Shown: positions 792 to 61,008, counted from the first letter of the stretch. The stretch is 64,000 nucleotides of DNA from Hydrurus foetidus (GCA_900617105.1 UYFQ01000001.1:1054001-1118000), one strand, 5' to 3'. Made by a program: numbers and translations. Notes: generated from the letters alone by a model not told the origin.

Positions 792-894
792 GCGCGGGAG
801 TGTAGGCGAGTGTTCATTAAACGCTCGGTACTTACCCGTGCCTCACAAGTATTTACCCTTCTTTTGGCATGGAATACGCAGTTTTACGTAGGTA

Positions 895-911
895 ATTTCA
901 CATAATGAGAT
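895..911. promoter_or_regulatory. Imperfect palindrome ATTTCA-CATAA-TGAGAT upstream of aceE, possible regulator site
   Basis: Inverted repeat in the AT-rich divergent intergenic region; cognate factor unknown. Confidence 0.3.
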
Positions 912-998
912 CATTGATCACTATTTGAAATTTTTGAAAATCATGAGAGAATAGACTTGCACCACTAAATCACGACCTTACTTTTTCAGGAGACAAGC

Positions 999-3716: not shown

Positions 3717-3734
3717 ACGCCAGGAGAGAACAAC

Positions 3735-5447
3735 ATGGCCAACGTAGAAATTCAAGTTCCTGATATCGGTGATTTTGATGAAGTCACCGTGATCGAGTTG
3801 ATGGTGAAACCCGGCGACACGGTGAAGGCCGACCAGTCGCTTATCACCGTCGAATCCGACAAAGCGTCGATGGAGATCCCCTCCAGCCACGCCGGTGTGG
3901 TGAAAGAGCTGCGCATTAAGCTGGGCGACAAAGTCAAGCAAGGCTCCATCGTGTTGGTGCTCGAGACCGAGGGCGGCGCTGCTGCTGCCCCAGCCGCTGC
4001 ACCCGTTGCAGCACCTAACCCTGCGCCAGCGCCTTCTGTACAAGCACCTGCTGCTCCTGTTGTTGTAGCGCCTGTCGCCGCAGCAGCCAGCGTAGGCTTG
4101 ATCGAAGTGCGCGTGCCTGACATCGGCGACTTCAAAGACGTGGCCGTGATTGAGCTGCTGGTCAAAGTGGGCGACACCATCAAGGCTGAGCAATCGCTGA
4201 TGACGGTGGAGTCTGACAAAGCGGCGATGGAAATCCCCTCATCGTCAGCAGGTGTCATCAAAGAACTCAAAGTCAAGCTGGGTGACAAGGTCAACATTGG
4301 CGACTTGGTGGTGATTTTGGAAGGTGCCATTACTGCATCGTCAACGGCATCGGCTTCTCCTGCCGCAGCGGTTGCAGTGCCTGCACCTGCTGCAGCGCAG
4401 GCTGCACCGACACTAGCAGCTACAACTTCTGTAGCGGTTGCGGTGTTTGCCCCTTCCCCTGTTGCTGCCAGTGTCCCCGCGCATGACCCTACCGCCAGTG
4501 CGCTGCACCTGCCTCACGCCAGCCCCTCCGTGCGCAAATTCGCCCGCGAACTTGGCGTGCCGTTGGAAGAACTCAAAGGTACAGGCCACAAGGGCCGCAT
4601 CACCGAAAGCGATGTACAAGGCTTCACCAAGTCCGTCATGGCCGGTGCAGTGCAGACCAAAGCCCAGGTGGCGAATGCCCCTAAAGCGGCTGCGGGTGCC
4701 AGTGATGGTGGCGGCTTGGGTCTGTTGGCTTGGCCCAAGGTCGATTTCGCCAAGTTCGGCCCGGTTGAGCGCAAAGACATGTCGCGCATCAAGAAGATCA
4801 GCGGTGCTAACCTGCACCGCAACTGGGTCATCATCCCGCACGTCACCAACCATGACGACTGCGACATCACCGACCTGGAAGCCTTCCGCGTCAGCATGAA
4901 CAAAGAGAACGAGAAGTCTGGCATCAAGCTCACGATGCTGGCCTTCATGATCAAAGCCAGCGTGGCGGCTTTGAAGAAGTTCCCCGAGTTCAACAGCTCG
5001 CTTGATGGCGACCAGCTGGTGATGAAGCAGTACTTCAACATCGGTTTCGCGGCAGACACGCCAAACGGCTTGGTCGTCCCCGTCATCAAAGACGCAGACA
5101 AAAAAGGCGTGATGCAAATCTCTACCGAAATGGGTGAACTCGCTAAAAAGGCCCGTGATGGCAAGCTGGGCCCGGCCGACATGAGCGGTGCCTGCTTCAC
5201 CATCTCGTCGCTGGGTGGCATTGGCGGGCGGTACTTCACCCCCATCATCAACGCCCCCGAAGTCGCCATCATGGGTGTGTGCAAGAGCGCGATCGAACCC
5301 AAGTGGGACGGCAAAGCCTTCCAGCCGCGTTTGATGTTGCCGCTGTCGCTGTCGTGGGATCACCGCGTGATCGACGGTGCCGCTGCTGCCCGCTTCAACG
5401 CGTTCTTTGGCCAAGTCTTGACGGACTTCCGTCGAGTCCTTCTGTAA
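3735..5447 (+). CDS. aceF: Dihydrolipoyllysine acetyltransferase (PDH E2) with two lipoyl domains
   Basis: Two ESDKA lipoyl motifs, Ala/Pro linkers, HASPSVRKFARELG subunit-binding domain, catalytic DHRVIDG. Confidence 0.98.
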   Translation: MANVEIQVPDIGDFDEVTVIELMVKPGDTVKADQSLITVESDKASMEIPSSHAGVVKELRIKLGDKVKQGSIVLVLETEGGAAAAPAAAPVAAPNPAPAPSVQAPAAPVVVAPVAAAASVGLIEVRVPDIGDFKDVAVIELLVKVGDTIKAEQSLMTVESDKAAMEIPSSSAGVIKELKVKLGDKVNIGDLVVILEGAITASSTASASPAAAVAVPAPAAAQAAPTLAATTSVAVAVFAPSPVAASVPAHDPTASALHLPHASPSVRKFARELGVPLEELKGTGHKGRITESDVQGFTKSVMAGAVQTKAQVANAPKAAAGASDGGGLGLLAWPKVDFAKFGPVERKDMSRIKKISGANLHRNWVIIPHVTNHDDCDITDLEAFRVSMNKENEKSGIKLTMLAFMIKASVAALKKFPEFNSSLDGDQLVMKQYFNIGFAADTPNGLVVPVIKDADKKGVMQISTEMGELAKKARDGKLGPADMSGACFTISSLGGIGGRYFTPIINAPEVAIMGVCKSAIEPKWDGKAFQPRLMLPLSLSWDHRVIDGAAAARFNAFFGQVLTDFRRVLL

Positions 5448-6031
5448 TGACCACCGTCGTTGTTGTTAAGAAAAATGGCCAAGTCGCCATCGCCGCCGAT
5501 TCGTTGGTGACGTTTGGCGACACCATGCTGGGGCCCCGCTTTGAGGCCAACAGCAAGATCGTCATGGTCGATACGCTGGTCGGGCCGACCTACATTGGTG
5601 CGGCAGGCACGGTCGCGCACTTCCCCGTGCTGCGCCGGGCCTTGAACAGCTTGTCCCTTGACCAGCGCTTGTTGGGCAGCAAAGACGAGGTGTTCGACAC
5701 CTTCACCCGGCTGCACCCCTTGCTCAAAGAAAACTTCTTTTTGCAAACCAAAGAAGACGACAACGACCCCTACGAGTCCAGCCAGTTCAGCGTGCTGGTG
5801 GCCAATGCCACCGGCATCTACGGCCTGTACAGCTACCGCGAAGTCTTCGAGTTCAAAGAATTCTGGGGCATCGGCTCAGGCCGCAGCTTTGCACTCGGTG
5901 CCATGCAGGCGGTGTGGGCCAAAGCCAAAACTGCCAAAGAAGTGGCCGTTGCGGGCATCACCGCCGGCTGCGAATTCGATAAAAGCTCTGGCCTGCCGGT
6001 GGACGTGTTCACCGTCAAGCTCAAAGCTTAA
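5447..6031 (+). CDS. Ntn-hydrolase, proteasome beta/HslV-like (probable betaproteobacterial proteasome homolog, BPH)
   Basis: ATG overlaps the aceF stop (TAATG); N-terminal MTT, AIAADS, GIGSG and D..SG motifs typical of proteasome-fold Thr proteases. Confidence 0.75.
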   Translation: MTTVVVVKKNGQVAIAADSLVTFGDTMLGPRFEANSKIVMVDTLVGPTYIGAAGTVAHFPVLRRALNSLSLDQRLLGSKDEVFDTFTRLHPLLKENFFLQTKEDDNDPYESSQFSVLVANATGIYGLYSYREVFEFKEFWGIGSGRSFALGAMQAVWAKAKTAKEVAVAGITAGCEFDKSSGLPVDVFTVKLKA

Positions 6032-6078
6032 AAATCCTCAATTGACATCACATCACGTTTTTGCGTGGAGAACCTCTC

Positions 6079-7923
6079 ATGGCACTGATTGAAATCAAAG
6101 TCCCCGACATTGGCGATTTCGCCGAAGTCACCGTCATCGAATTGATGGTCAAACCCGGCGATACCGTCAAGGTAGACCAGTCGCTGCTGACCGTGGAGAG
6201 CGACAAAGCCTCCATGGAAATCCCTTGCAGCCACGCCGGTGTGGTCAAAGAATTGCGCGTCAAGCTGGGCGATAAAGTCGCCGAAGGCACCGTGGTGCTG
6301 ATGCTGGAAGCCGCTGGCGAGGCGGCTGCTGCACCTGTGGCCGCAGCGCCTGCACCTTCCACACCTGCTACCCCCGCACCTGTGCAAGCTGCACCGGTAT
6401 CAGCAGCTATCACTTCCGTAGCATCAACTTACACCGGCGCTGTTGATCTCGACTGCGATCTGCTGGTGCTGGGCGCTGGCCCTGGTGGCTACAGCGCGGC
6501 TTTCCGTGCGGCTGATTTGGGCCTCAAAGTCGTGATCGTCGAGCGCTACGCCACCTTGGGCGGTGTCTGCCTGAACGTCGGCTGCATCCCGTCCAAAGCC
6601 CTGCTGCATGTCGCATCCGTCATGGATGAAGTCAAGCATTTTGAAGCCTTGGGTGTCACCTTCGCCGCCCCAGAAATTGACCGTGCCAAGCTGCTCGGCC
6701 ACAAAAACAAAGTCGTCAGCAAGTTGACCGGCGGCCTCAGCGCCATGGCCAAGATGCGCAAAGTCACTGTCGTGCGTGGCTACGGCGCGTTCCTCGATGC
6801 CTTCCACGTTCAGGTGGAAGAAACCACCGGCACGGCGCAAGAGAAGACCGGCAAATCCCAAACCATCAAGTTCAAAAACTGCATCATCGCCGCAGGCAGC
6901 CAAGCCGTACGCTTGCCGTTCATGCCCGATGATCCGCGCGTGGTTGATTCCACCGGCGCACTGGCGATGGGCACGGCCCCCAAGCGCATGCTGATCCTGG
7001 GTGGCGGCATCATCGGCTTAGAGATGGGCACCGTCTACAGCACCCTGGGCGCACGCCTGGACGTGGTGGAAATGATGGACGGCCTGATGCAAGGCGCTGA
7101 CCGCGATCTGGTCAAAGTCTGGCAAAAAATGAACGCCTACCGTTTCGACAACATCATGTTGAATACCAAAACGGTCGGTGCCAAAGCCACCCCCGAAGGC
7201 ATCGAAGTCACCTTCGCCCCAGCGGCAGAAGGCGGCACCTGCCCCGCACCGCAAACTTACGATCTGGTCTTGCAAGCCGTAGGCCGCACGCCCAACGGCA
7301 AAAAGATCGCCGCTGACAAAGCTGGTGTCACCGTCACCGACCGTGGTTTCGTGCCCGTCAACATCCAAATGCGCACCAACGTGCCCCACATCTTCGCCAT
7401 CGGCGACATCGTGGGCCAACCCATGCTGGCCCACAAAGCCGTACACGAAGCCCATGTCGCTGCCGAAGTCATCGCCGGTGAAATCCAAGGCAATAAAGAA
7501 CTCGCCAGCGCCGCCTTCAACGCCCGCGTCATCCCCAGCGTCGCCTACACCGACCCCGAAGTCGCCTGGGTTGGCCTCACCGAAGACCAAGCCAAAGCCC
7601 AAGGCATCAAGGTCAAAAAAGGCCTGTTCCCGTGGACGGCATCAGGCCGCGCCATCGCGAATGGCCGCGACGAAGGCTTCACCAAACTGCTGTTTGACGA
7701 CAGCCCCGAAGCCCACGGCCACGGCAAAATCCTGGGCGGCGGCATCGTCGGCACCCACGCTGGCGACATGATCGGCGAGATCTCTCTGGCGATTGAAATG
7801 GGTGCTGATGTGGTCGATATCGGCAAAACGATTCACCCGCACCCAACGCTGGGGGAGAGCATTGGCATGGCGGCTGAAGTGGCGCATGGGTCATGCACGG
7901 ACTTGCCGCCTGGGAAGAAGTAA
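6079..7923 (+). CDS. lpdA: Dihydrolipoamide dehydrogenase (E3) with N-terminal lipoyl domain
   Basis: GAGPGG FAD motif, GGVCLNVGCIP redox disulfide, GGGIIG, HPHPTLGE; start set to the ATG after GGAG. Confidence 0.98.
   Translation: MALIEIKVPDIGDFAEVTVIELMVKPGDTVKVDQSLLTVESDKASMEIPCSHAGVVKELRVKLGDKVAEGTVVLMLEAAGEAAAAPVAAAPAPSTPATPAPVQAAPVSAAITSVASTYTGAVDLDCDLLVLGAGPGGYSAAFRAADLGLKVVIVERYATLGGVCLNVGCIPSKALLHVASVMDEVKHFEALGVTFAAPEIDRAKLLGHKNKVVSKLTGGLSAMAKMRKVTVVRGYGAFLDAFHVQVEETTGTAQEKTGKSQTIKFKNCIIAAGSQAVRLPFMPDDPRVVDSTGALAMGTAPKRMLILGGGIIGLEMGTVYSTLGARLDVVEMMDGLMQGADRDLVKVWQKMNAYRFDNIMLNTKTVGAKATPEGIEVTFAPAAEGGTCPAPQTYDLVLQAVGRTPNGKKIAADKAGVTVTDRGFVPVNIQMRTNVPHIFAIGDIVGQPMLAHKAVHEAHVAAEVIAGEIQGNKELASAAFNARVIPSVAYTDPEVAWVGLTEDQAKAQGIKVKKGLFPWTASGRAIANGRDEGFTKLLFDDSPEAHGHGKILGGGIVGTHAGDMIGEISLAIEMGADVVDIGKTIHPHPTLGESIGMAAEVAHGSCTDLPPGKK
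7517..7923 (+). repeat. Direct repeat copy 1 (lpdA 3' end, 407 bp)
   Basis: Colinear with 13385-13791 at a constant offset of 5868 at both ends; mostly synonymous differences. Confidence 0.95.
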
Positions 7924-7953
7924 ACTGCTAAAACACTATTAAATTAATAGCTA

Positions 7954-7989
7954 GCTGCGCAATCCCTACTGGGGGTACGCGGCTTTTTT
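7954..7989 (+). terminator. Putative intrinsic terminator after lpdA
   Basis: gctgcg...cgcggc stem followed by a T run; a related sequence follows the second lpdA copy. Confidence 0.5.
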
Positions 7990-8052
7990 AATGCGTAATG
8001 AGAATGTGACTCTCAGTACTTGTTCAGACGCGTACAGAATTGGGCCTGCAGG

Positions 8053-11000
8053 TCATGGTCGCTCCGCTGCTCTCAACCATGTGTTGATGCCATCGACACC
8101 TAATTCCAACAATGTGTCTTGTAGCGCGACCACACGTTTAATCATTTCACCGTCGTCAGACTCCTCTCGCTCCTCCGCATTGGCAAATAAGCGAGTCAGC
8201 AATTGGGTTAGGTTGTTTTCGTAGTCGTGCAGGTAGGGCTTGGTGCGTTTGACATAGGCCAGATAAATTTCAGTAACGGCTAAGGCTTGCTCTGGATCGT
8301 GTTGTGCCGTGCTGTTCAGCCATTCATCAACGCCAATCAAGCGGTGGTGCTTGTTCTCATCATCTTTTTCGAGGACATCGAAGTGGCGCTGGATCAGTGC
8401 TGTTGGCACAGAAACCACCTGTGTTTTATCTCTGAATAAGTGATCCATCTGTCCCGCAACTGATTTGGCGTGTGCATTTCTGGCATTCAAACCAGCTTCA
8501 AGTCCTGCAAGACATTGTTCACGGTATTTACGGATATTTTCAGGGTGCGTCCAAACGCTTGCAGCACCCCACCACGCTTCAGTGGCATCCAGCACTTTCA
8601 ATTCTTCGAGAAATACGGAAAAGTCGAGGTGTCCCACCAGGGCTGCTAACGCAGATATGCGCCCCCAAATTTCAAAGTCCTTGCCTTTTCCTTCTTTGAG
8701 AATACGCGGCAGCATGGCTGCAACTCTCTCAAAATGATCGTGATAAGCGTAATAAAGACAAGTTTCCGCACTTTCCCATAATCCCTGTGAGTCCACCATC
8801 GCGCTGTGGAATAAATCCCAGCCTAGTGCTGGGTTACGACTTTGAATTGAGGGTAAACGACGCAAGACCAGCGCACGTATTGCTGGGTGTTCGTCTGCGG
8901 CAAAACGGCGTAGCGTGGCCGAAAGAAGTTCTGGAAATATGGCGTTTTTTTCCAGGAACTGATTGGCCAAAATCATCAAGGTTTCGACAACGTGGCCGCG
9001 CACCATGTTGATGCCAGTGGTCAGTAAATCAACGGAGTCGCCGCGGATAGAGCTTTCTTCTCTCAGTGTTTCATATCCGATGGCTAAAAATACCAGCCGC
9101 GCTGTATCTTGGCTGTCAGTCACAACATGTGCGCAGGCTTGCAATGCATTGGATGCCGAGCGGTTGTGGTGCCAGTAGCTAGGGTGCCTTTCGAGTTCGT
9201 CAATGATTTGTCGTGCCAAGCTGGGCGCATCCGGTTCTTCGCTCGGTTTCCAGGTGGCATTGGCTTGCAAGCTGCCATAGCGGTGTGCCAGATAGTTGGC
9301 GACACCGTCCATGATGTCATTGCAAAAACTGTCGGAAATATCCGTCCAATGCGCGGGCAACAGATGCAAGAAACGCGTAGGTTGGCGGGACGCTGCTTCG
9401 CGCAGTTGCCAGCCAACCTCTCGTTCGCCACCGATCAGAAAGTCATCGCCGTGCGAATTTGATTGCCCGGTGTAATGCGCCAGTAATCGCAGCACCCCAG
9501 CATCGGTAGCCTTCAAAAAAACCTCGTATGAAAACGGTGCGCCGACCATACCGCCACGCATTCCTATGCGCGGCTGGCGGATGAGATAGCCCACTGTTTG
9601 TACTTGTGCGTCCAACAAAGCTTGTGCTTTTGGTGAACGCAGATAACAAGGTACTGTGACGATCAGTTGAGCTTGCTCGCGTAATATCCAGTCGCGGTTG
9701 AGATCGTCGTTAGCCTCATCTTCATCGCGTAGGGACAAGATGGCTTCCAGCACCGCATCCTGAGCGGGAACCGTCAGGTGCCTGAATGCTGCTTGTACCA
9801 AGGTGCCTATTTCATACGATAAATCAGACTTCAACAACGGCTTGTCGCACAACATCTGCGCAATTAGGTCAACGTTGGCTTCTGGCTCTGCTGTGCAAGC
9901 GAGGACGGCGAAGTAGCGCAATGCCCCCTCGTTGTTGGAGCAGAGGCTTTTACGGTTGTTCTGCCACCAGTCGGAATGAGCCTGGGCATGGGTCAAAATT
10001 GCAGCTTCCACGGCATCCAATAGCACTCGTTCACCGTCAATATGGCGATGGTCGGTTTGACTGTGGGCATCGTTGTACGAGGTTTTACGCAGGAATCCAC
10101 TCCAATAATTGATTCCATATTGAGATAGCCGGGCTTGGCTCCATTGCTCAATCGACGCAAGTGCTAAATCCAGTAGTAACGGAGATTGCTGCATCCTTTG
10201 AAGGAGAAATTTTTCATTGCTGTCGCCAAACTCATGGGGTTGACAGAATAGCTTGTCACCAAATTGATGCGAGAGTGCGTCAACACTGCTGATGTCACCG
10301 ACTACATAGCGCCAAAGCAATGTGTCACTCAGCCCACCTGAAGTGATACCGCGTGCGATAGCAAGTCCTAGAAAGCTGTGTTGACGTCGCGGGAGGTTGA
10401 TTAATATTTCAAGTAAAGGGGCAAGTAGTGCGGTATCAGCAATTCTGATGTCGAAAAGATACAAGCCCAAACGTTCAGCCATTTGATCGCGTGCTACCCA
10501 GTCCAGCGACAGAGCTTCAGTCCAGAAGGCCAAAATGCCCGCTGTGTCGTCATCTTTCCACTGCTGTACCCGATGCACATGTATCGCTATTCCTTCTGCA
10601 TCGTGCGTGGTTTTTAAAGCCGGGACGAGATGTTTAAACCAAAAGTGATGCCATTCAATTGCTGTAGCCTGGGTGTAAATGACCTGATACACGTCACGAT
10701 ACGTTGTGCGCAAATCGTTTATCAAGCTCCAGTCGTCATTCTCCGGTTTTTGCTCTGCAAAGGATTCGGCTACCAAGCGGCGGATGTGGAAGGGAGCCGT
10801 GCCAGTCAGAACCGTACGCAATTGCTTCCGGAATTCGTTGCGCGCTCCAATGGCCAATTGTGCTACAAAGCTACGGATGCTGGGGCGTACAAAGGGCACG
10901 GGAGGCAAGCGTTGAATGAAGGCGTTCAATGTGACACCCTGTCGCACCGCGCCGCTAATCACCAGAACATCCAGCAGGGTTTGGTGTCCGAACGTCAGTT

Positions 11001-13278
11001 TTCCATCTTGTGTTTCGTGCAAAACGTTATGGCTGCGTAATGCCTTCAAGATATCTTCTGACGCTGAAAATCGTTGGCGGGGGACTGCCAAGCTTCGAGT
11101 TTTTAGCATTTCGTCAGCAATAGCTTCAATTGCTTGCATCGCCGGGTCACCCAGTACTTCGTTGTTCTGCACAATGGTTTTGAGGTAGTTCTGGGAAAGT
11201 TCGTGGCTGGTAACCGCATTGACGCTGGCAGACTGTTTGGACAGTTCAACAAACAAGGCCAATTCGCGTGGGTTTTGAATCAATTCGCGGGTTACTGCAT
11301 CAGTCGTGCTTGTGTCGATGTTTAGTTTGGTTAGCAGTGGTGCAATTTCGGTGTCCCAGTTCAAGGCTGGGCACGTCAATTCAACATCCCATTTGCGCTC
11401 GGCTATGCTGCGGTCGTATTTGCGGTCGAACTCACGGCATGCTGTGACCACGGTTACGTTTGGAATTAAAAGCAGTCGGTCTATTTGCGCCAGAAAATAT
11501 GTCAGAACTGTGTGCTCGCGGGCAATGGAAAGCACATCCAACGAGTCGATCACCACAACCACTCGCGCTTCTTTTGCGATGCGCGCCACTTGTTCTACCC
11601 ACTGTATTGGTAGGCCTTGGGCTTGGCGGTCTTTCGCGGTGGATTGGTCTGCGAACTCTCGTGACTGGATAAAGAGTGGTACTAGGTCAGTATGGGTTTG
11701 TGCGCGCTGCTCCAGCAAGTCTTGTAGCGCTAACATCGCGCAGGTTTTTCCAGAGCCGGGTAAGCCAGTGAGCAAAATGGCGCGTTTACCTTCGTCAATG
11801 GCTTCAAAAAGCCTGTTTACGATTTGGCTGGAAATTTTTTCTCCCGAGATGTCTCTATGCCACCCCCTTCCAATGGCGGAAATACTGGCAAACGATGCCC
11901 GTATTTCAGCAATATCTATCTCCGGATTTACTGCGGTTGTAGGCGAAGTAGCGGGTGTTGTTGTTGAGCTTGTCGGTGGCTCTATGGTGGCTGGGCTATC
12001 ACCGAAATGCCAACCTAACGCGTCGGCTAACTGCTTTGCGCATTGGTTCCAGCTGCAATGTTCGAGTAAGCCGCGGTGAAGTTGTGCGGCCTTTTGTCTG
12101 TGTATTGCAGGGTCTTTTGCAATTTGGATCAGGGCATTGGAGAGTGCTTTGAGGTCTTCGGGGCGAAAGTATGGGGACTGGTTGCTGCCCGCTATTTCAA
12201 TCGCATGCACCATCGAGGTGTAGAGTCCATTTTCAAGCTCACGCAGGTAGTGGTAAGCACCACTTGTGGTACTCACGATCAAAGGAACGCCGGCGGCGAT
12301 CGCTTCCCAGGCGACTAAACCAAAACCTTCATGCCACGAGGGCATCATCGCAACGCTAGCTGCGCGTAAATCATTGAATAATTCTTCGCGGTCTTTGGTG
12401 AATGGCAAGGCATGCATGGCTAGCACGCCTTTCGCGTATTTCTCTGCAAACGCTTTTAGATCTCGCTCGGCATGTGGGTCAATCGTTCCGGTAGATTTTT
12501 CAAACTCAACCCCGCGTAAAACGAGCAAGGGCTCGTTTCGCCGGTGCAATGCATCCGGTAGTCCACCATCCTGCGAGCACCGGCTTATAGCTTCGCCAAA
12601 GGCTGCCACGCCTAAGTAGGCCTGTTTTATCTTGCTTGCGCTGTCGTCAAGGCGGCCACTTAAAAACGCCTTAAAAGTTCGTGGTTCTGGTCGATGTGTG
12701 ATTGCCGGAAAGCCTGGCACCAGCATTGGTACATCTTCACCATCAAGCATGTCGCTCATAGCATCGCGCAGCAGAGGGCCGACTGCCAGTACGATGTCAG
12801 CTTGCGCAAACAATTTTTTCTGCTCTGTTACTTTTGAGTGTGTTTGAACACTGTTTTCGGCAAAAAATTCATAGTGTTTGTAACTCATGTGGTGAATCAA
12901 TGCCGATCGCCCCCCGAGTTCTTTAGCTGATGCCAAGGCTATGTCGCCGGTAATACGGTCATGGCCTAGCCAAACTGTTTCGGCTGTGTTGGCTTGGATG
13001 TCTGCATCTTGCAATGCTTGGGATACCTTGGATTCCAATTCAGCGTTGAATTTATCCGTCCCAGGTAGACCACCTAGTGAAACCAGCGACACGTTTTTAC
13101 TGCGAGCCGCATCAATTTCGGCACTACTGGCATGCGGAACAACACAAACAGTTTTAACTTCTTTTTGAAAATCGGCTGCGATAGCTGGTAGTAAGTCGGC
13201 GTTAAAGCTGTTGATTCCCCCGAACTGCGGCCCCCAGCCGGTAGCAAACGCAACCAGTGTTTTTTTAATCTGAGTCAT
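8053..13278 (-). CDS. GT4 glycosyltransferase - STAND (NACHT/Avs-like) NTPase fusion with a long C-terminal region; putative antiphage protein
   Basis: 1741 aa. N-terminal GT-B domain (FGGINSFN; MMPSWHEGFGLVAWEAIAAGVP containing EX7E), Thr/Pro linker, Walker A GLPGSGKT, Walker B VVVVIDSLD, VVTACR, NPRELALF, FGHQTLLD, then ~950 aa C-terminus. Confidence 0.8.
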   Translation of the reverse strand: MTQIKKTLVAFATGWGPQFGGINSFNADLLPAIAADFQKEVKTVCVVPHASSAEIDAARSKNVSLVSLGGLPGTDKFNAELESKVSQALQDADIQANTAETVWLGHDRITGDIALASAKELGGRSALIHHMSYKHYEFFAENSVQTHSKVTEQKKLFAQADIVLAVGPLLRDAMSDMLDGEDVPMLVPGFPAITHRPEPRTFKAFLSGRLDDSASKIKQAYLGVAAFGEAISRCSQDGGLPDALHRRNEPLLVLRGVEFEKSTGTIDPHAERDLKAFAEKYAKGVLAMHALPFTKDREELFNDLRAASVAMMPSWHEGFGLVAWEAIAAGVPLIVSTTSGAYHYLRELENGLYTSMVHAIEIAGSNQSPYFRPEDLKALSNALIQIAKDPAIHRQKAAQLHRGLLEHCSWNQCAKQLADALGWHFGDSPATIEPPTSSTTTPATSPTTAVNPEIDIAEIRASFASISAIGRGWHRDISGEKISSQIVNRLFEAIDEGKRAILLTGLPGSGKTCAMLALQDLLEQRAQTHTDLVPLFIQSREFADQSTAKDRQAQGLPIQWVEQVARIAKEARVVVVIDSLDVLSIAREHTVLTYFLAQIDRLLLIPNVTVVTACREFDRKYDRSIAERKWDVELTCPALNWDTEIAPLLTKLNIDTSTTDAVTRELIQNPRELALFVELSKQSASVNAVTSHELSQNYLKTIVQNNEVLGDPAMQAIEAIADEMLKTRSLAVPRQRFSASEDILKALRSHNVLHETQDGKLTFGHQTLLDVLVISGAVRQGVTLNAFIQRLPPVPFVRPSIRSFVAQLAIGARNEFRKQLRTVLTGTAPFHIRRLVAESFAEQKPENDDWSLINDLRTTYRDVYQVIYTQATAIEWHHFWFKHLVPALKTTHDAEGIAIHVHRVQQWKDDDTAGILAFWTEALSLDWVARDQMAERLGLYLFDIRIADTALLAPLLEILINLPRRQHSFLGLAIARGITSGGLSDTLLWRYVVGDISSVDALSHQFGDKLFCQPHEFGDSNEKFLLQRMQQSPLLLDLALASIEQWSQARLSQYGINYWSGFLRKTSYNDAHSQTDHRHIDGERVLLDAVEAAILTHAQAHSDWWQNNRKSLCSNNEGALRYFAVLACTAEPEANVDLIAQMLCDKPLLKSDLSYEIGTLVQAAFRHLTVPAQDAVLEAILSLRDEDEANDDLNRDWILREQAQLIVTVPCYLRSPKAQALLDAQVQTVGYLIRQPRIGMRGGMVGAPFSYEVFLKATDAGVLRLLAHYTGQSNSHGDDFLIGGEREVGWQLREAASRQPTRFLHLLPAHWTDISDSFCNDIMDGVANYLAHRYGSLQANATWKPSEEPDAPSLARQIIDELERHPSYWHHNRSASNALQACAHVVTDSQDTARLVFLAIGYETLREESSIRGDSVDLLTTGINMVRGHVVETLMILANQFLEKNAIFPELLSATLRRFAADEHPAIRALVLRRLPSIQSRNPALGWDLFHSAMVDSQGLWESAETCLYYAYHDHFERVAAMLPRILKEGKGKDFEIWGRISALAALVGHLDFSVFLEELKVLDATEAWWGAASVWTHPENIRKYREQCLAGLEAGLNARNAHAKSVAGQMDHLFRDKTQVVSVPTALIQRHFDVLEKDDENKHHRLIGVDEWLNSTAQHDPEQALAVTEIYLAYVKRTKPYLHDYENNLTQLLTRLFANAEEREESDDGEMIKRVVALQDTLLELGVDGINTWLRAAERP

Positions 13279-13384
13279 GGTTGGTTTTTATGTAAAAGCG
13301 ATTTCTCATTTTGCAGGCAAATCGAACTGCTCAACTGCCTGGTTTGTTAAGTCTGTTTCGAGGGGCGACATTGCTGTTTTCTGC

Positions 13385-13791
13385 TCAACGCCAGAGTGAT
13401 TCCGTGGGTGGCCTACACCGACCCCGAAGTCGCCTGGGTTGGCCTCACCGAAGACCAAGCCAAAGCCCAAGGCATCAAGGTCAAAAAGGGCTTATTCCCC
13501 TGGAACGCCTCAGGCCGCGCCATCGCGAATGGCCGCGACGAAGGCTTCACCAAACTGCTGTTTGACGACAGCCCCGAAGCCCACGGCCACGGCAAAATCC
13601 TGGGTGGCGGCATCGTCGGCACCCACGCTGGCGACATGATCGGCGAGATCGCTCTGGCGATTGAAATGGGTGCTGATGTGGTCGATATCGGCAAGACAAT
13701 TCACCCGCATCCGACGCTGGGGGAGAGCATTGGGATGGCGGCTGAGGTGGCGCATGGCAGTTGTACGGACTTGCCACCTGCGAAGAAGTAG
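13385..13791 (+). pseudogene. lpdA: Duplicated 3' fragment of lpdA (direct repeat copy 2)
   Basis: Encodes VAYTDPEVAWVG...HPHPTLGE...DLPPAKK only; FAD and NAD domains absent. Confidence 0.9.
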
Positions 13792-13821
13792 GTTGTTGAA
13801 TTGCTACTGATTCAGTAGCTG

Positions 13822-13858
13822 GCTGCGCAAATCCTGTAAAGGCTGCGCGGCTTTTTTT
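13822..13858 (+). terminator. Putative intrinsic terminator after the lpdA fragment
   Basis: gctgcgc...gcgcggc stem plus T7. Confidence 0.5.
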
Positions 13859-14131
13859 ATGTTTTTAAGGGGCAGTCCGAAAAAACCAGGAAGCCAAAAA
13901 TCCGCTGAGAGTTCACCAGAATTGAATGGATATATTGGCCATGCCACCTCTACTTTGCAATTGAAAAAAATTGCGTGCCCCGACAGAGTACCTGCTGAAA
14001 AAGAGGTGACTTCACTGTTCAAGCCATGCCTATACTGTCCTCATAGATATTTGAATATGTTCCCAGTGCTTCGAACATATGCCTGTGTTTGTGACCCACC
14101 TCGTTCTCGGCCCTCATCTGGAGTTGAACCT

Positions 14132-15025
14132 ATGAAGTCTTTTCCCTCTCGTTTCAAGACAATGGCTTGTCTGAGTGCCTTGCTGGCGCTAGGAGGCTGC
14201 GCAACTTCAATGGTCAGCACCGTACCAGTGGTAACTGCCACTGCAGCCAAGGCCATCAACACGACCGGGCCGTCGGGCAGCGGTGTGAACAATGCGCTGA
14301 TTCATGCCGTGGCTTGGAAGCAAACTGCTGCGGAATACCGTGCTTTGTACTACCAAGGTTTTAACGTGGCACGCATGCATGTAGAGGCTGCTATTGCCAA
14401 GCGCAAACCAGGGGAGAAACCGCTGGCGGTGGTCACCGACATGGACGACACGGTTCTTCATGCCATGAATTACTGGGGCCACTTGGTCAACAAAAATTTA
14501 GATTATTTTGACGACCCGATTTGGGATGCCTGGATTCCCGAGAATAAAGTCACTGCCTCACCAGGTGCCAGTGATTTTTTAAAGTTTTGTGCCGACAACA
14601 ACGTCGAGGTCCACTACATAACCAGCCGTGAGCAAGGCGAAAAGACCTACGAATATGCCATGGGCCACCTCAAGTACCTGGGCTTTCCGTATGCAGACAG
14701 CAAGCATTTGACAGTTCTGCGCGACACCTCCAATAAAGAAAAACGTCAAGACGAGGTGATGAAAGACTATAACGTCGTAGTCTTTCTGGGCGATAACCTG
14801 AACGATTTTCGCCGCAAGTACTACCTCAAGAACGATGTGGATGGCCGCATCAAAATCATGGAAGGTGATCGCGACAAGTACGGACGCAATTACATCCTCT
14901 TCCCCAACCCTACCGATGGCCACTGGCTGGCGGCCATCTTTGGTGACTCGGAGCCACCTCCTACCGATGCCAATCGCGAGATCATGAAAAAGGCTGCGAC
15001 GAAATCGGCTTGGGGTGTCAACTGA
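14132..15025 (+). CDS. Lipoprotein e(P4)-family acid phosphatase / 5'-nucleotidase (HAD class C)
   Basis: Lipobox LALGGC; WKQTAAEYRALYYQGFN, DMDDT, GDNLNDF, PNP motifs; start moved to the ATG after GGAG. Confidence 0.85.
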   Translation: MKSFPSRFKTMACLSALLALGGCATSMVSTVPVVTATAAKAINTTGPSGSGVNNALIHAVAWKQTAAEYRALYYQGFNVARMHVEAAIAKRKPGEKPLAVVTDMDDTVLHAMNYWGHLVNKNLDYFDDPIWDAWIPENKVTASPGASDFLKFCADNNVEVHYITSREQGEKTYEYAMGHLKYLGFPYADSKHLTVLRDTSNKEKRQDEVMKDYNVVVFLGDNLNDFRRKYYLKNDVDGRIKIMEGDRDKYGRNYILFPNPTDGHWLAAIFGDSEPPPTDANREIMKKAATKSAWGVN

Positions 15026-15932
15026 GTCTGACAGGTAAAAACCCAGCAGCTGACTTGGCTTTCAAAGCCGCTTCCACGGTATCCCAGTACAGCAGCTCCA
15101 AGCGCCCGTCCTGGTGTTCAACCAGCGCGGTGCGGCTTTCCACCCAATCGCCATCGTTGCAATAGAGCGTGCCCTGAATGTCACGCATTTCAGCGCGGTG
15201 AATATGGCCACAGACCACGCCATCGTGCCCGCGCCGCCGGGCTTCAGCGGCCACGGCGGCCTCAAAGTCCATCACGTAATTCAGCGCTTTTTTCACCTTG
15301 TGCTTAAGGTACGCCGAGAGTGACCAGTACGGCAAACCTAAACGCCCACGCCAATTGTTCAGGTGACGGTTCCACCGCAGCGTAAGTTCGTACAGTGTGT
15401 CGCCCAGGTAGGCCAGCCACTTGGCGCACTGGATCACCGCATCAAAATAATCCCCGTGCACCACCCACAGCTTGCGGCCATCGGCGGTGGTGTGAATGGC
15501 TTCTTGCTGCACATCGATACCGCCAAACTGGTGCCCCACAAAGCCGCGTGCAAATTCGTCATGGTTGCCTGGCACAAAGACCACACGACAGCCTTTGCGG
15601 GCGCGTTTGAGGAGTTTTTGCACCACGTCATTGTGTGATTGCGGCCAAAACCATTTGCGCCGCAACTGCCAGCCGTCCACGATATCGCCCACCAAATACA
15701 GGTTGTCGCTGGGGTACATCTTCAAAAAAGCCAGCAGCGCCTCGGCTTGGCAGCCTGCGGTGCCCAGGTGGATGTCGGAGATGAAGATGGTGCGCAGACG
15801 TGGTGCCGTGCCTTCTTCCGGCTCCGAAGTGGGCTCAACCGTTGCCGTGTCTCGGCCACCCAAAACAGCGGCCACAGTGGCTTCGCGCCATGTGTGGTGC
15901 TGGGTACTGAGCGTGTCGAAAGTGGCAAGCAT
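15018..15932 (-). CDS. LpxH/PlcP-like metallophosphoesterase (putative phospholipase C for lipid remodelling)
   Basis: SDIHLG, GDIVDGW, PGNHDE, HGD, GHIH, NDGDWVES motifs. Confidence 0.8.
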   Translation of the reverse strand: MLATFDTLSTQHHTWREATVAAVLGGRDTATVEPTSEPEEGTAPRLRTIFISDIHLGTAGCQAEALLAFLKMYPSDNLYLVGDIVDGWQLRRKWFWPQSHNDVVQKLLKRARKGCRVVFVPGNHDEFARGFVGHQFGGIDVQQEAIHTTADGRKLWVVHGDYFDAVIQCAKWLAYLGDTLYELTLRWNRHLNNWRGRLGLPYWSLSAYLKHKVKKALNYVMDFEAAVAAEARRRGHDGVVCGHIHRAEMRDIQGTLYCNDGDWVESRTALVEHQDGRLELLYWDTVEAALKAKSAAGFLPVRLS

Positions 15933-16798
15933 CAGCGAACCACAAGCTTTTGCTGGCGAAAGTGCTTGCGGTAACGCGGCGACATATCGCTGATGCGCAG
16001 CAGCATAGGTAAATCAGCAGCGTTGAAATCAGGGTCCCAAGCCGGTGCGCCCAGCACCTTGGCGCCTAACCGCAAATAGCCTTTGATAAGGGCGGGTGGT
16101 TCGACGTGAACGCTGGGGTCAGCCACGTCGAATGCGTCAACAGGCAGCGCCAAGCGCGGCTGCACATGAAGTTCGAACGGGGCCAAGTGGGTTTGCCGCA
16201 ACTGGTGCCAGACAGCGGCTGCAGCTTGGGTACTGATCACGCCGTTGCTCAGCAGCGGGATACTGGCGCAGCCGATCATGGTGTCCAGATCATTGCGCAG
16301 CATGAACTCGGTCAGCGCCCCCCACAGCGCCAAAATCACGCTGCCATGCCGGTGTTCAGGGTGTACGCAGCTGCGCCCCAGTTCCACCATGCGGCTTCGT
16401 AAGCTGCGCAACCGCGTCAAATCAAACTCCATATCGCTGTAGGTGCTGCCCACCCGCTTGGCCTGCACCGGCGTTAGCACGCGGTAAGTGCCAATGACTT
16501 GCTGGGTAGCGGCATCGCGCACCAGCAAATGCTCGCAGTAGTCGTCAAACAAATCCATGTCATGGCCGGGAATGGGCGCACGCAGTTTTGCGCCCATTTC
16601 AGTCGCAAACACATCAAACCGCAAGCGCTGAGCGGCACGAACTTCATCTTGGTGCTTGGCCCATGAAACCACGATAACCCTTTGCTCAGATACGGCTGGT
16701 GGAGCCACAGAAGGCCTGCTACCGTCACCGTGGTGCAGTGAGTCCCAAGCCATCAGCGGAGGGGGCAGTGTGAAGCAAGGGCTGTGAAACTCATTCAT
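15932..16798 (-). CDS. GNAT N-acyltransferase, OlsB-like (amino-lipid synthesis)
   Basis: AQRLRFDVF, DLFDDYCEHL, GTYRVL, ELGRSCVHPEHR, PALIKGYLRLGA, DPDFNAAD motifs. Confidence 0.8.
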   Translation of the reverse strand: MNEFHSPCFTLPPPLMAWDSLHHGDGSRPSVAPPAVSEQRVIVVSWAKHQDEVRAAQRLRFDVFATEMGAKLRAPIPGHDMDLFDDYCEHLLVRDAATQQVIGTYRVLTPVQAKRVGSTYSDMEFDLTRLRSLRSRMVELGRSCVHPEHRHGSVILALWGALTEFMLRNDLDTMIGCASIPLLSNGVISTQAAAAVWHQLRQTHLAPFELHVQPRLALPVDAFDVADPSVHVEPPALIKGYLRLGAKVLGAPAWDPDFNAADLPMLLRISDMSPRYRKHFRQQKLVVR

Positions 16799-16841
16799 GA
16801 AGGCGATCCTTGTGTTTTAAATTTCACAAAGTTTGTCAACT

Positions 16842-16885
16842 AGGTGTGACACTGGTGTGGCAGTTGGATGCGGCCTGTGTGACAG
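16842..16885 (-). promoter_or_regulatory. Putative Pho boxes (PhoB sites)
   Basis: Minus strand reads CTGTCACacag GCCGCATccaa CTGCCACacca GTGTCACacct: 11-bp periodic matches to CTGTCA(T/C), ~45 bp upstream of the GNAT start. Confidence 0.65.
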
Positions 16886-17008
16886 CGGTAGATGATGCAT
16901 TCGGGACGGAACTGGTGTGATACTCGTGTTGTGAGTAATTTTTTGAAAAACTTCGCCTATTTGTTTCAAATGGTTACAATTTGTGTGTTTTTCTAAATTT
17001 ATATCGCC

Positions 17009-17494
17009 ATGTTAAAAAAATCACTTGCTGTTTCTGTTGCGCTTAATGTGGTGTTTGTAGCCGCATTTGCGTACAGCTTTGGTCGCCATGCAATGGATGT
17101 GCCTGAGCCTTCAACCTCCGCTCTAACCAAAGCCATGCAGCCGATGCACGTTGATCAGACATGGATTAAATCGGGCACACCGCGCTTTATGGTGACCGAA
17201 TCAGCGGTCATCAAACCGCCCATTGGCGGCGTGAGCACAGGGCTGTGGTCGTGCGATGGCCCCACGACTTTCGAATGGACTTACGGTACAGATGAAACGG
17301 TTCACATCATTGAAGGTGAAGTTCACATTGATTACCTGGATCAAAAGCTCACCTTGAAAGCGGGGGATACTGCGTTTTTCCAAGCGGGCACCAAGGCTAC
17401 TTGGACGGTGCCTGATCGGGTGTTCAAATCGTTTGTGCTGCACGACCCCGGTGTCCTTTCGCGCCTGTATCGCCGGGCCACGGCTGTTCTTTAA
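17009..17494 (+). CDS. Cupin (DUF861/cupin_3) protein with N-terminal hydrophobic anchor
   Basis: TGLWSCDGPTTFEWTY..DETVHIIEG, LKAGD..FF.AG..ATW motifs. Confidence 0.75.
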   Translation: MLKKSLAVSVALNVVFVAAFAYSFGRHAMDVPEPSTSALTKAMQPMHVDQTWIKSGTPRFMVTESAVIKPPIGGVSTGLWSCDGPTTFEWTYGTDETVHIIEGEVHIDYLDQKLTLKAGDTAFFQAGTKATWTVPDRVFKSFVLHDPGVLSRLYRRATAVL

Positions 17495-17520
17495 CCCGGC
17501 GGGCGTATTTGCCGAGTTTA

Positions 17521-18591
17521 TCAGTCAGGCTTGACGTTGGCCGCCTTGATGACACGGCCCCAGCGCACCGTTTCCGCTTTCACAAAGGTGGCAAAACTGG
17601 CTTGATTGCCGGTGTTCACCACCGCACCCAATTCCGCAATGCGGCTGCGTACCGCAGGCTCGGCCAACAGCTTTTGGGTTTCCGCATTCAGCCGACTCAC
17701 AACCTCTACAGAGATGTGTGCCGGTGCCACCAAGCCCCACCAAACGGACATTTCCAAACCTGGCACCCCCACTTCTGCGAGGGTGGGCACGTCAGGCAGC
17801 AGGGGCAGGCGCTTGGCGCTGGTAACGGCCAAGGCACGCAGCTTGCCCGACTTGATGTGTGGCATCACCTCAACGGGGTTCAAGGGCATGAACGAGATGC
17901 GCTCACCCAGCAAATCAGTCAAGGCCGGGGCTCCGCCTTTGTAGGGGATGTGCAGCACAAAAATACCTGTGGCTTGCTTCAGCGCTTCGCCCGCCAAATG
18001 GCCGGAGCTGCCATTGCCAGCGCTCGCGTAGGTCATGGCCCCGGGCTGAGCTTTGGCCTGGGCCAGCAGCTCTTTCCATGATTTGGCGGGGGAGGCCGCT
18101 GGCACCACGACGACCAGGGGAGCATCGGCGATTTTGACGATGGGCAGCAAATCTTGTTGCGGATTGAAGGGCAGGGTAGTGAACAGGCTGGCATTGGTGG
18201 CCAGCGCGTTGGCGGACATCAGCAGCGTGTGGCCGTCAGGCGCCGCTTTGGCGACCGCATCCATCCCCAAGTTGGCGCTGGCACCAGGGCGGTTGTCCAC
18301 CAAAACGGGTTGCCCCAAACGCTCTGCGAGCTGCTGGCCTACCAAGCGGGCTACCGTGTCCACCGCGCCACCTGCGGCATAGGGGACGATGAGGCGGATG
18401 GGCTTGGAGGGGTAGGTTTGTGCCCAGCAGTTTAAGGCTCCAAAAAGGCCGGTACTGAATGCCAGTAGGGCGATAATTGCTCTTTTTTTGAGAGCATTTA
18501 AAGCATTTAAAGCGTTTAAAGCGTTTGAAGCGTGTGAAGCGTTGGGAGGTGCGTGTGAAGCGTTGGGAGGTGCGTGTGAAGCTGAGGTCAT
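17521..18591 (-). CDS. Bug/TctC tripartite tricarboxylate transporter substrate-binding protein
   Basis: YPSKPIRLIVPYAAGGAVD, DNRPGA, APDGHTLL, YASAGNGS, IPYKGGAPA motifs; exact start uncertain. Confidence 0.9.
   Translation of the reverse strand: MTSASHAPPNASHAPPNASHASNALNALNALNALKKRAIIALLAFSTGLFGALNCWAQTYPSKPIRLIVPYAAGGAVDTVARLVGQQLAERLGQPVLVDNRPGASANLGMDAVAKAAPDGHTLLMSANALATNASLFTTLPFNPQQDLLPIVKIADAPLVVVVPAASPAKSWKELLAQAKAQPGAMTYASAGNGSSGHLAGEALKQATGIFVLHIPYKGGAPALTDLLGERISFMPLNPVEVMPHIKSGKLRALAVTSAKRLPLLPDVPTLAEVGVPGLEMSVWWGLVAPAHISVEVVSRLNAETQKLLAEPAVRSRIAELGAVVNTGNQASFATFVKAETVRWGRVIKAANVKPD
18494..18582. repeat. Compound tandem repeat (9-bp and 21-bp units) in the 5' end of the Bug gene
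   Basis: Four gcatttaaa/gcgtttaaa-type 9-mers followed by about 2.5 copies of gcgtgtgaagcgttgggaggt; encodes SHAPPNA and NAL repeats. Confidence 0.9.
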
Positions 18592-18646
18592 GCTGTCTCT
18601 TTGGAGGTTGTAGGAACGAGAAATTAAACCATCCACAATCAGGTTT

Positions 18647-19579
18647 TCACGCTGATTCCGGCATAGCTGATAGAACGGCTTTCATCACCACACGCTTGAC
18701 CACCTCCAGCGCCACTTTATGGGTTTCGGTGGTGGGTCTGCGGGCCGACCAGACCAGAGTCAACTGGCTCATCAGCGTGGGTTGTTCAATCGTGTGCGTT
18801 TGCAGGGGGTGCGGTTGGGCTAAATTGCGCAAGGTGTAGCTGGGCAAGACGGCATAGCCCAGGCCTTCTTTGACCAAATCCAAAATAGCGTTGAGCCCGT
18901 CAATTTCCAGCACGATGTTGGGTTTGCAGCCTATGCGCGCCATTTCAGACTCGATCAACAAACGAAACGCATTGGGGCGACTGGGCACAATCAAGGGCAG
19001 TGTTGCCAATTGCTTGAGCGTCACCGTGTCGGGCAAGGTAATGGCTGCTCGCCCCATCGCTTTGGAACCCGCAGAGATGAGCACCAAGGCCTCCTCATGC
19101 AGCAGTGTCATCTCTAAATCTGGCGACGGCGGTGGGTTGTACAGCACCGTTAAATCCAGCCGACCTGCACGCAAGCCCTCGTACATCAGTACCGAAAACC
19201 CTTCTGTCAGACTTAAGCCTGCATAGGGCAAACAATGCCGAAACTCATGTGTGAGCGGTACCGTGATGAGTTTGGACAAACTGGGCGGCAAACCAATCGA
19301 CACACGCCCCGCCAGTCCGCCGCGAATCGAGCCTAGCTCTTCGCGCGTCAAGGCCACTTGGTGCAGAATGCCTCGTCCATGCTCAAGCAGCACCAAGCCT
19401 GCTTCGGTCAGCGTCACACCGCGCCCATTGCGCAGCAAAAAAGTTTGGTGGTATTCCACCTCTAACTGGCGCACATGGCGGCTGAGCAAAGGCTGCGCTA
19501 TGCCTAGCGCCACTGCGGCGCGGCTGAAGCTGCCTAACTCAGCCACCCGTACGAACGATTCAATTTGTTTCAAGTCCAT
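18647..19579 (-). CDS. LysR-family transcriptional regulator, divergent from the lig operon
   Basis: N-terminal HTH MDLKQIESFVRVAELGSFSRAAVALGIAQPLLSRHVRQLE, LTEAG, substrate domain. Confidence 0.95.
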   Translation of the reverse strand: MDLKQIESFVRVAELGSFSRAAVALGIAQPLLSRHVRQLEVEYHQTFLLRNGRGVTLTEAGLVLLEHGRGILHQVALTREELGSIRGGLAGRVSIGLPPSLSKLITVPLTHEFRHCLPYAGLSLTEGFSVLMYEGLRAGRLDLTVLYNPPPSPDLEMTLLHEEALVLISAGSKAMGRAAITLPDTVTLKQLATLPLIVPSRPNAFRLLIESEMARIGCKPNIVLEIDGLNAILDLVKEGLGYAVLPSYTLRNLAQPHPLQTHTIEQPTLMSQLTLVWSARRPTTETHKVALEVVKRVVMKAVLSAMPESA

Positions 19580-19687
19580 CAGGTAAACCCTTTATTTGCA
19601 TACCTTTGTATCGGCTATGTTAATTTGTTATACCAGCTAGTGTGATTGGTGTGCTTGTTTTTACACAGTGCTTTCTACAATTTGCGC

Positions 19688-20452
19688 ATGAACAACACGC
19701 CTGCTCACGCCCCATCTGCCTCTGTTATCACCGCCCCCGTTAAGGGTATTTCGTCCATGGCCACGCGCCAGATACTGGCCGAGTTGTGCGAGCAGTACCA
19801 GCGCCAAACCGGCGTGGTGGTGGCGATTGAATCGGTGGGGGGTGTGGATGCCGCCGGGCGGGTTGCCGCGGGTGAGTCGTTTGATCTGGTGGTACTGGCC
19901 TCGGATGCCATTGACCGCTTGATCGCAGCGGGCCACATCCGTGCAGGCACCCGTTGTGATTTGTTCAGTTCAGGCGTGGCCGTAGCGGTGCGTGCGGGCC
20001 AGCCCTTGCCCGATATTTCAACTGAAGACGCGCTCAAGCGCAGCGTGCTTGCTGCCAAAAGCATCAGTTACTCCACCGGCCCCAGTGGCGTGGCCTTGGC
20101 CCAATTGTTTGAGCGATGGGGCATTGCTGACGTGCTGAGCCGCCGCACGGTGCAAGCCCCACCCGGTGTGCCTGTTGGCAGCTTGGTCGCAGCCGGACAG
20201 GTTGACCTGGGGTTTCAGCAGCTGAGTGAGCTGCTGCATGTAGACGGCATCGCCCTTGTTGGCCCCTTGCCTGCGGCGGTGCAAATCACCACGGTTTTTT
20301 CAGCAGGGCTGCCTACCGCCTCAGCCTGTGTATCTGATTCCGTATCTGCCAGCGATTCCCCCCAGGCCGCGCAAGTGCGGGGTCTGCTGAGTTTCATGAC
20401 CTCTGCATCCGCAGTGGCCACCATTGAACGCCAAGGCATGGCTGCGGCCTGA
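19688..20452 (+). CDS. ModA-like substrate-binding-fold protein without signal peptide
   Basis: GESFDLVVLA, ISYSTGPSG, GFQQLSEL, VGPLP..VQITTVFSAG motifs; no hydrophobic N-terminus. Confidence 0.75.
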   Translation: MNNTPAHAPSASVITAPVKGISSMATRQILAELCEQYQRQTGVVVAIESVGGVDAAGRVAAGESFDLVVLASDAIDRLIAAGHIRAGTRCDLFSSGVAVAVRAGQPLPDISTEDALKRSVLAAKSISYSTGPSGVALAQLFERWGIADVLSRRTVQAPPGVPVGSLVAAGQVDLGFQQLSELLHVDGIALVGPLPAAVQITTVFSAGLPTASACVSDSVSASDSPQAAQVRGLLSFMTSASAVATIERQGMAAA

Positions 20453-60977: not shown

Positions 60978-61008
60978 CCAACTAACGCTCTTACTTTGAT
61001 AGATTACT

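Follow-up and report, generated by a model that had tools for sequence, protein, structure and literature searches.

The minus-strand gene at positions 8053..13278 of the window (the whole 64,000-nucleotide stretch of DNA that was analysed) encodes an intact protein of 1741 residues in which the NTPase and sensor of the Avs7 family are joined to a GT4-conflict glycosyltransferase at the N-terminus, where the Cap4 nuclease would otherwise stand. The gene represents a new effector variant of the known Avs7 system and not a new system. We consider it probable that the protein works as an Avs7-family STAND that forms an oligomer when triggered by phage capsid protein, whereupon the GT4 domain would transfer sugar, likely onto an essential host target, and the infected cell would be arrested. 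The architecture, homology, conservation and effector exchange behind this proposal were observed, whilst capsid sensing and oligomerisation are carried over from SeAvs7 by homology.

Translation of 8053-13278 gives a single frame that is unbroken over 1741 residues, as an earlier note on this DNA had described, and the motifs that it named were all recovered: EGFGLVAWE (nt 12304-12330) and GLPGSGKT (11743-11766) lie at the places given there, and VVVVIDSLD, TACR, NPREL and FGHQ are each found in the ORF. In a search of solved structures, residues 449-1741 align in a single stretch to SeAvs7 229-1523 (1710.7 bits, E=0), with the 1523-residue chain of 9N00/9N01/9YIX as the only strong match; these entries are deposited as SeAvs7 from Salmonella enterica (Lee et al., Nature 2026, PMC13581612). 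NTPase and sensor thus align end to end with those of SeAvs7, which is likewise a single-gene system. The NTPase module comprises aa 449-780 (10939..11934, minus strand; SeAvs7 229-560 in the alignment to 9N00) and, by homology to SeAvs7 561-1523, the bilobed TPR-like sensor comprises aa 781-1741 (8056..10938, minus strand); the sensor boundary at SeAvs7 561 and the residue roles given below are those described in Lee et al. 2026 (PMC13581612). The sensor alignment runs to the last residue, and the final 442 residues alone score 574 bits (E 1.9e-171). The earlier note had left it to be checked whether the NTPase groups with STAND/Avs proteins: on the strength of the SeAvs7 match it is assigned to the Avs-family STANDs and belongs with Avs7 rather than with NACHT, for which the profile score of 26.6 falls just below the cut-off of 26.7.

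The positions that matter for nucleotide binding, autoinhibition, capsid contact and EF-Tu contact in SeAvs7, mapped by hand onto printed pairwise alignments, are kept in the window protein. In case of the NTPase these are Walker A K511/T512 (nt 11743-11766) together with D578, R587, R615 and H765, the equivalents of SeAvs7 D358, R367, R395 and H545, with all six positions invariant in 22/22 GT4 and 42/42 Cap4 forms (64/64 aligned rows). The predicted EF-Tu contact patch, located by alignment to SeAvs7, consists of Q1219, D1223, R1264, H1268 and D1279 (9442..9624, minus strand) and equals SeAvs7 Q999, D1003, K1044, H1048 and D1059, four residues being identical and K1044 being replaced by R1264; the Q, D, H and D are retained in 22, 21, 21 and 21 of the 22 GT4 forms, and the K1044 site is variable among them (R in 10/22). 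On the capsid side, N1424, Y1509 and N1581 are identical to SeAvs7 N1204, Y1289 and N1361 and invariant in 22/22 GT4 forms. Since the capsid-side contact residues are dispensable in SeAvs7, where recognition is by shape (Lee et al. 2026, PMC13581612), their retention is evidence of family membership and not proof of the same ligand. Across the mapped nucleotide, EF-Tu and capsid positions, 13/14 are identical and 14/14 are kept when the Lys to Arg exchange is counted.

SeAvs7 is described as ADP-bound and autoinhibited at rest, as binding the phage major capsid protein with the help of EF-Tu, as recognising only some capsids and, upon activation, as exchanging to ATP, forming a tetramer and degrading DNA via the Cap4 nuclease (Lee et al. 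2026, PMC13581612). Phage portal and terminase, suggested by the earlier note as triggers, were rejected: the sensor is that of Avs7 and not that of Avs1-4, and by analogy the major capsid protein is predicted to be the more likely trigger.

The difference from SeAvs7 lies at the N-terminus. SeAvs7 carries a Cap4 PD-(D/E)xK nuclease at aa 1-228, for which there is no alignment to the window protein; in its stead stand a 420-residue GT4 domain, the predicted effector, and a Pro/Thr/Ser-rich linker (about aa 425-448; 11935..12006, minus strand) that is variable among GT4-Avs7 proteins. The GT-B glycosyltransferase profile GT4-conflict (PF20706) matches aa 10-417 (12028..13251, minus strand) with 271.4 bits (cut-off 26; E 1.7e-80) over model positions 2-385 of 385, against 42 bits for the generic GT1 profile on the same domain; no NCBIfam metabolic GT family scores above its cut-off on the protein. 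Among 140 aligned homologs (2/142 were omitted for short coverage), no exception was seen for G20, G21, H130, K218 and E317, and a single one each for R209 and E325 (139/140). These residues make up a GG loop, a His, an Arg/Lys pair and an EX7E motif (E317-E325; 12304..12330, minus strand), which we take to be the GT4 catalytic motifs. On the acceptor side, W15, N23, N26, C45, H106, H130, M131, Y136, K149 and Q153 are each found in 140/140 homologs. The intact GT-B/GT4 domain noted previously at aa ~1-420 is therefore present with its catalytic residues kept, and by its sequence the enzyme looks active. The AlphaFold/Foldseek comparison that had been recommended for this domain gave a GT-B fold with GT4 enzymes as matches: the AlphaFold2 model (101-row alignment) has a pLDDT of 90.8 and a best Z of 32.7 with an rmsd of 3.0 over 362 residues, with MshA as the top Foldseek match and with sucrose-phosphate synthase (Z 32.7) and BshA (Z 31.6) among the structural matches.

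With 13-18% identity, the closest solved folds belong to GT4 enzymes that act on small molecules or lipids, and they indicate neither donor nor acceptor. They do speak for one alternative, in which sensor and trigger are the same and the activated GT4 kills by draining the nucleotide-sugar pool, either by hydrolysis or by transfer to a small metabolite: sucrose-phosphate synthase, BshA and MshA are enzymes of this small-molecule kind, and metabolite depletion is, as a matter of general knowledge, a common effector logic, with TIR, SIR2 and PNP effectors draining NAD or ATP. We nevertheless regard this alternative as rather unlikely, given that identity to these enzymes is so low and that the strong conservation of the ten acceptor-side residues fits a specific acceptor better than it fits water.

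A second alternative is that GT4 serves as a binding or adaptor domain, or that the protein serves a purpose other than defence, for instance the synthesis of envelope glycans. Relatives are indeed named "glycosyltransferase involved in cell wall biosynthesis" in databases, and the neighbouring genes are mostly housekeeping genes. Such roles are, however, difficult to reconcile with catalytic residues that are invariant among the 140 homologs (R209 and E325 in 139), with the large margin of the conflict-specific profile over generic GT1, with the lack of metabolic GT families above cut-off, with the absence of a glycan gene cluster beside the gene in the window and with the patchy distribution of Avs7, which occurs in 8/401 related genomes and is AT-rich compared with its hosts. 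We hold this alternative to be very improbable; an envelope-biosynthesis GT in particular was rejected on the PF20706 score, the missing glycan cluster and the patchy Avs7 distribution.

Relatives were collected with aa 455-1741 (914 among 7987 candidates scored, best 120 used) and with aa 1-430 (401 among 7988 candidates scored, best 120 used), and the listed matches of both searches together with 26 genome loci gave 256 sequences: 22 GT4+Avs7 proteins, including that of the window, 109 Cap4+Avs7 proteins, 120 proteins with GT4 on another chassis and 5 N-terminally short Avs7 proteins. At least 21 GT4-Avs7 proteins besides that of the window are hence found among the matches listed. Most close homologs carry a Cap4-like nuclease and not a GT, which answers a check proposed by the earlier note; its view of an effector-STAND-sensor layout with a swappable effector slot that here holds a glycosyltransferase also stands, in that GT4 replaces Cap4 at the same boundary and the two occur in 22 and 109 sequences, respectively. 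One Cap4 form (P0013) has a chassis 68% identical to that of the window, and its alignment to SeAvs7 begins at residue 1. Of 1278 representatives at the 50% level the best 150 were inspected, and 111 of these have at least 180 residues before the chassis: 108 Cap4 forms, 1 GT4 form and 2 with neither. By these counts GT4 is the rare form and Cap4 is what distant relatives carry.

A chassis tree (quick IQ-TREE, weak root) was calculated from 35 rows, comprising 14/22 GT4 forms, two of them on long branches, and 21 Cap4 forms. The effector label needs 3 changes on this tree, each forced by strong branches, provided that there was no recombination inside the chassis, and a single GT4 clade is rejected (p-AU 1.4e-6); narrower chassis sets agree on exchange, with 2 changes. 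As read from the Avs7 tree, effectors have been exchanged at least three times. In the GT4 tree, where several deeper nodes are weakly supported, the 21 Avs7-fused domains come out as a single clade (FastTree 0.971) that is embedded in the remaining 119 domains. The non-Avs7 GT4 proteins have a GxGGxGKT Walker A in 113/120 cases; all eight that were scanned contain TPRs, and seven of these eight give a weak nSTAND_NTPase5 match. On these unrelated STAND-TPR chassis the GT4 clade is the same, at 45-63% identity. The simplest reading would be that Avs7 took GT4 once from a GT4-STAND-TPR protein, with later exchange of GT4 and Cap4 between Avs7 chassis.

Several further features of these genes were recorded. 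In four genomes of the Geobacter group, the stop codon of the GT4-STAND-TPR gene is overlapped by a gene for a 469-residue Schlafen AlbA_2 + HATPase_c_4 protein (L015:14068-15474, L017:14209-15615, L018:13927-15333, L020:13915-15321), and the pair is a possible two-gene system. The GT4-STAND-TPR sensors contain tandem DNA repeats, at most 89-94% identical in some loci (about 12800-13700), with a period of 138 bp in L007, L008, L009, L012, L021 and L023 and of 147 bp in L025 and L026; several of these contigs end within the repeats. Some Avs7 copies have lost internal segments or have a broken frame (L092:808-3828 in G011, L087 in G359, and L058), as would be expected of costly defence genes or of assembly errors.

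By homology to SeAvs7, the resting receptor of the window would be ADP-bound and autoinhibited, would capture newly synthesised phage major capsid protein, aided by EF-Tu, and would form a tetramer upon exchange of ADP for ATP. Clustering, or release from the sensor, may then switch GT4 on, which would use a nucleotide-sugar to glycosylate an essential host target, the toxicity of the product leading to arrest of the infected cell. A counterpoint lies in the mode of control: Cap4 domains help to build the SeAvs7 tetramer and are kept shut by the NBD and C-lobe (PMC13581612), as against a 420-residue GT on a flexible linker in the window protein. Given an active effector, we put the chance that the acceptor is a host protein or other host macromolecule at about even, the translation machinery being the foremost guess; a drained nucleotide-sugar pool or a small-molecule product is a distinctly weaker candidate, and a phage component is weaker again. 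What favours a host macromolecule is that the domain travels between unrelated sensors, suggesting that its target is shared by all hosts, together with the tightly conserved acceptor side and the precedent of SidI, a Legionella GT-B mannosyltransferase toxin that blocks translation by glycosylation (10.1101/2022.06.10.495705). SidI shares the GT-B fold and shows that a GT-B enzyme can stop translation, but it is secreted, acts on eukaryotes and is not part of a STAND protein, and the match is at the level of the fold only (49th among the structural matches of the GT model, Z 19.1, 11% identity). The more specific proposal, that a capsid-triggered GT4-Avs7 glycosylates the host translation machinery and possibly the very EF-Tu recruited by its sensor, gains appeal from the prediction that the sensor holds EF-Tu; since the same GT4 also occurs on chassis with no known link to EF-Tu, we regard it as speculative and rather doubtful.

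A phage component as acceptor forms a third alternative: GT4 would glycosylate, for example, the bound capsid protein, blocking assembly with the cell not being killed. The sensor does hold capsid protein in the same complex (Lee et al. 2026, PMC13581612), and modified invader molecules or interfaces are what Kaur et al. 2021 (PMC8195603) propose; against this, the presence of the same GT4 clade on unrelated STAND-TPR chassis makes it unlikely that the acceptor is tied to the ligand of one sensor, a ligand bound 1:1 is a poor catalytic substrate, and tested Avs proteins cause cell death (Lee et al. 2026, PMC13581612). This alternative therefore appears improbable, and modification of an essential host target is the reading that we prefer.

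The earlier note had considered this a candidate new system, which does not hold: the chassis is that of the published Avs7 family, and Kaur et al. 2021 had already predicted GT4 effectors for bacterial STANDs. Avs7 sensors are reported with at least 20 effector types (Lee et al. 2026, PMC13581612), and GT4 may be among these; the word "transferase" is absent from the main text in its journal and preprint versions, and a single, unrelated match was found in the seven source-data supplements. In Kaur et al. 2021 (PMC8195603), GT4 is predicted to be a counter-invader effector on AP-ATPase, NACHT and SWACOS STANDs, with modification of invader molecules or interfaces being proposed; source table rows of this eLife paper contain N-terminal GT4+APATPase+TPR proteins as well as a 1759-residue betaproteobacterial "GT4+NACHT" protein from Rugamonas (WP_176652673.1). 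The latter lies in the length class of GT4-Avs7 and may have this architecture; it was not among the cluster members examined. The effector position in the STAND proteins of Kaur et al. is likewise occupied by this GT4 clade, but these proteins are predictions with no trigger assigned, whereas the chassis in the window has a known trigger and structure. GT4 is also named among candidate protein-modifying effectors of bacterial NACHT proteins (Kibby et al., 10.1101/2022.07.19.500537), and GT4+NACHT rows from Acropora and more than 500 GT4-conflict copies in a coral are given in Kaur et al. 2021 (PMC8195603); these bacterial and coral proteins share GT4, although the NTPase of the window groups with Avs7 instead. 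The Atlas clusters nearest to the GT domain are cnidarian PF20706 clusters, which is a lead only. Our literature search, with most subscription journals outside it, found no experimental study of a GT4-conflict domain or of a GT4 antiphage effector.

The probable antiphage role put forward by the earlier note is supported by Avs7 homology and not by genomic context. The expectation that homologs sit in defence islands was not borne out: the readable GT4-Avs7 loci show no recognisable island, PADLOC gives no match beside the GT4-Avs7 genes at L001, L057, L059 and L060, and most scanned neighbours of Avs7 genes are housekeeping genes. Defence neighbours were seen beside four Cap4 forms (L002, L004, L094, L095). 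The best match of the protein in PADLOC-DB 2.0, a library dated 2023 that predates Avs7, is PtuA (E 0.039). In two metagenome loci an ORF of 1355 residues lies directly upstream of GT4-Avs7 (L060:1688-5752, L059:89-3079) and has no Pfam or PADLOC match at strict thresholds.

The gene lies in an AT-richer islet, as previously described: the GC content of 7924-13384 is 0.505 compared with 0.588 and 0.570 on its left and right, respectively, and third-position GC is 0.513 compared with 0.69-0.76 in aceE, aceF and lpdA. No second gene was found within it, leaving GT4 as the sole candidate effector in cis, so that the single cargo of the earlier description also stands. Low GC alone does not, however, mark the right edge, given that the adjoining 13859-15025 has a GC of 0.503; the bounds are instead given by a 477-bp direct repeat on both sides, which the earlier description lacked. 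The adjoining stretch, AT-rich like the islet and outside the repeat, encodes an acid phosphatase family protein (lipoprotein e(P4)-like) whose gene could not be found behind lpdA in the four nearest genomes retrieved. In one study, contigs from two runs contain 7797-13440 as one exact piece with no differences and at flank-level depth, although these may be the source sample and are then not independent support. Neither a sigma-70-like promoter nor a consensus terminator was scored near the ends of the gene, no match was found in the viral contigs searched, and a plasmid search with the GT domain returned 12 records, all below 60% identity. Elsewhere in the window, 59886-62600 holds a direct repeat of at least 300 bp and 98% identity (59886 and 61112), a 94-bp repeat (61018 and 62507) and a 31-bp inverted repeat (60032/61262).

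The insertion site is the 3' end of lpdA (dihydrolipoyl dehydrogenase; 6061..7923, plus strand, start codon not fixed; TIGR01350 above cut-off), the last gene of aceE-aceF-lpdA, with which the GT4-Avs7 gene stands tail to tail. The left copy of the repeat (7517..7993, plus strand) contains the lpdA 3' end and a stretch with a hairpin and T-run, and the right copy (13385..13861, plus strand; 88.7% identity to the left), just upstream of the Avs7 gene's start, contains a displaced lpdA 3' remnant, with Pyr_redox_dim in a 131-residue frame at 13396-13791, and the stretch following it. The copies are nearly identical mid-way and divergent at both ends, a pattern to be expected if the chromosome had undergone one crossover with incoming DNA that carried a related lpdA end: the gene likely arrived via a single recombination at the lpdA 3' end, leaving a duplicate behind. 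In G122, the nearest genome to be found (96.6% identity in LpdA), the 9.5 kb that follow lpdA contain no Avs7. Pieces of the gene at about 94-98% identity were found in related strains (three metagenome runs, two other studies), where lpdA-end sequence is joined on one or both sides (joints 13321 and 8038), short contigs that fit an integrated copy or a circle alike.

An Avs7 match occurs in 8/401 genomes of the family of G001, and in three of the eight lpdA 3' sequence lies tail to tail with Avs7: G001 (L001) has a GT4 form, 72% identical, in which the lpdA end is decayed (score 127, shuffled sequences at most 58), G144 has a Cap4 form with intact lpdA 69 bp away, and G359 has a broken Avs7 with a decayed lpdA piece (74.5, shuffled at most 54). 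G011, with 15 kb of ordinary genes in between, was not counted. No lpdA sequence was found at 16 other Avs7 loci, several of them on short contigs, and self-comparison of 26 loci revealed no long flanking repeat like that of the window. At least two lpdA-end matches were found in 35 of the 279 genomes having any (2 candidates scored per genome; some are paralogs); 21 stretches fetched from 19 such genomes include 8 with tandem copies, 7 of these with partial remnants of variable length. Scanning of 30 cargo ORFs gave a methyltransferase-HNH fusion, a YefM-YoeB pair, pieces of IS91-type transposase and three metabolic or transport genes, with most ORFs having no match; an integrase was not seen among them. 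The lpdA 3' site is a hotspot for cargo that includes some defence genes and does not amount to a pure defence island. The lpdA remnants (window 7517-7993 and 13385-13861; L001:5663-5900; L090:13009-13078; L087:640-800; L030, L031, L033-L036, L044) follow varied cargo, namely Avs7 with either effector, methyltransferase-HNH, YefM-YoeB and unknown ORFs.

The IS91-type element ISPps1, or pieces of it, begins directly after the lpdA 3' end in L027:8001-10604 (pADP-1), L032:3863-5339 and L044:214-999, with an SOS-box-like motif before the transposase; in L031, L033 and L036 the sequence after lpdA is similar to the ISPps1-associated one. ISPps1 may use or carry the lpdA 3' site. For the window a rolling-circle transposase route is unproven, since the islet has no IS91/ISPps1-like end (blastn of both junctions matched none of the IS-bearing loci fetched) and the SOS-box-like motif is absent from window 1-20000. 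A literature search on ISPps1/pdhL found nothing relevant among the matches listed.

As a secondary lead, the lpdA 3' site offers a place to mine for defence cargo in this bacterial family. GT4-conflict domains are present on many bacterial STANDs, and here one of them is coupled to a sensor for which trigger, structure and assay have been published: the known Avs7 trigger makes the uncharacterised chemistry of the GT4 effector testable. If glycosylation by GT4 were confirmed, it would join the antiphage effector chemistries. Should the translation-machinery reading prove true, GT4-Avs7 would be the first abortive-infection system to execute by glycosyl transfer and would provide the first substrate for the GT4-conflict family that is common to bacteria and coral NLR-like proteins.
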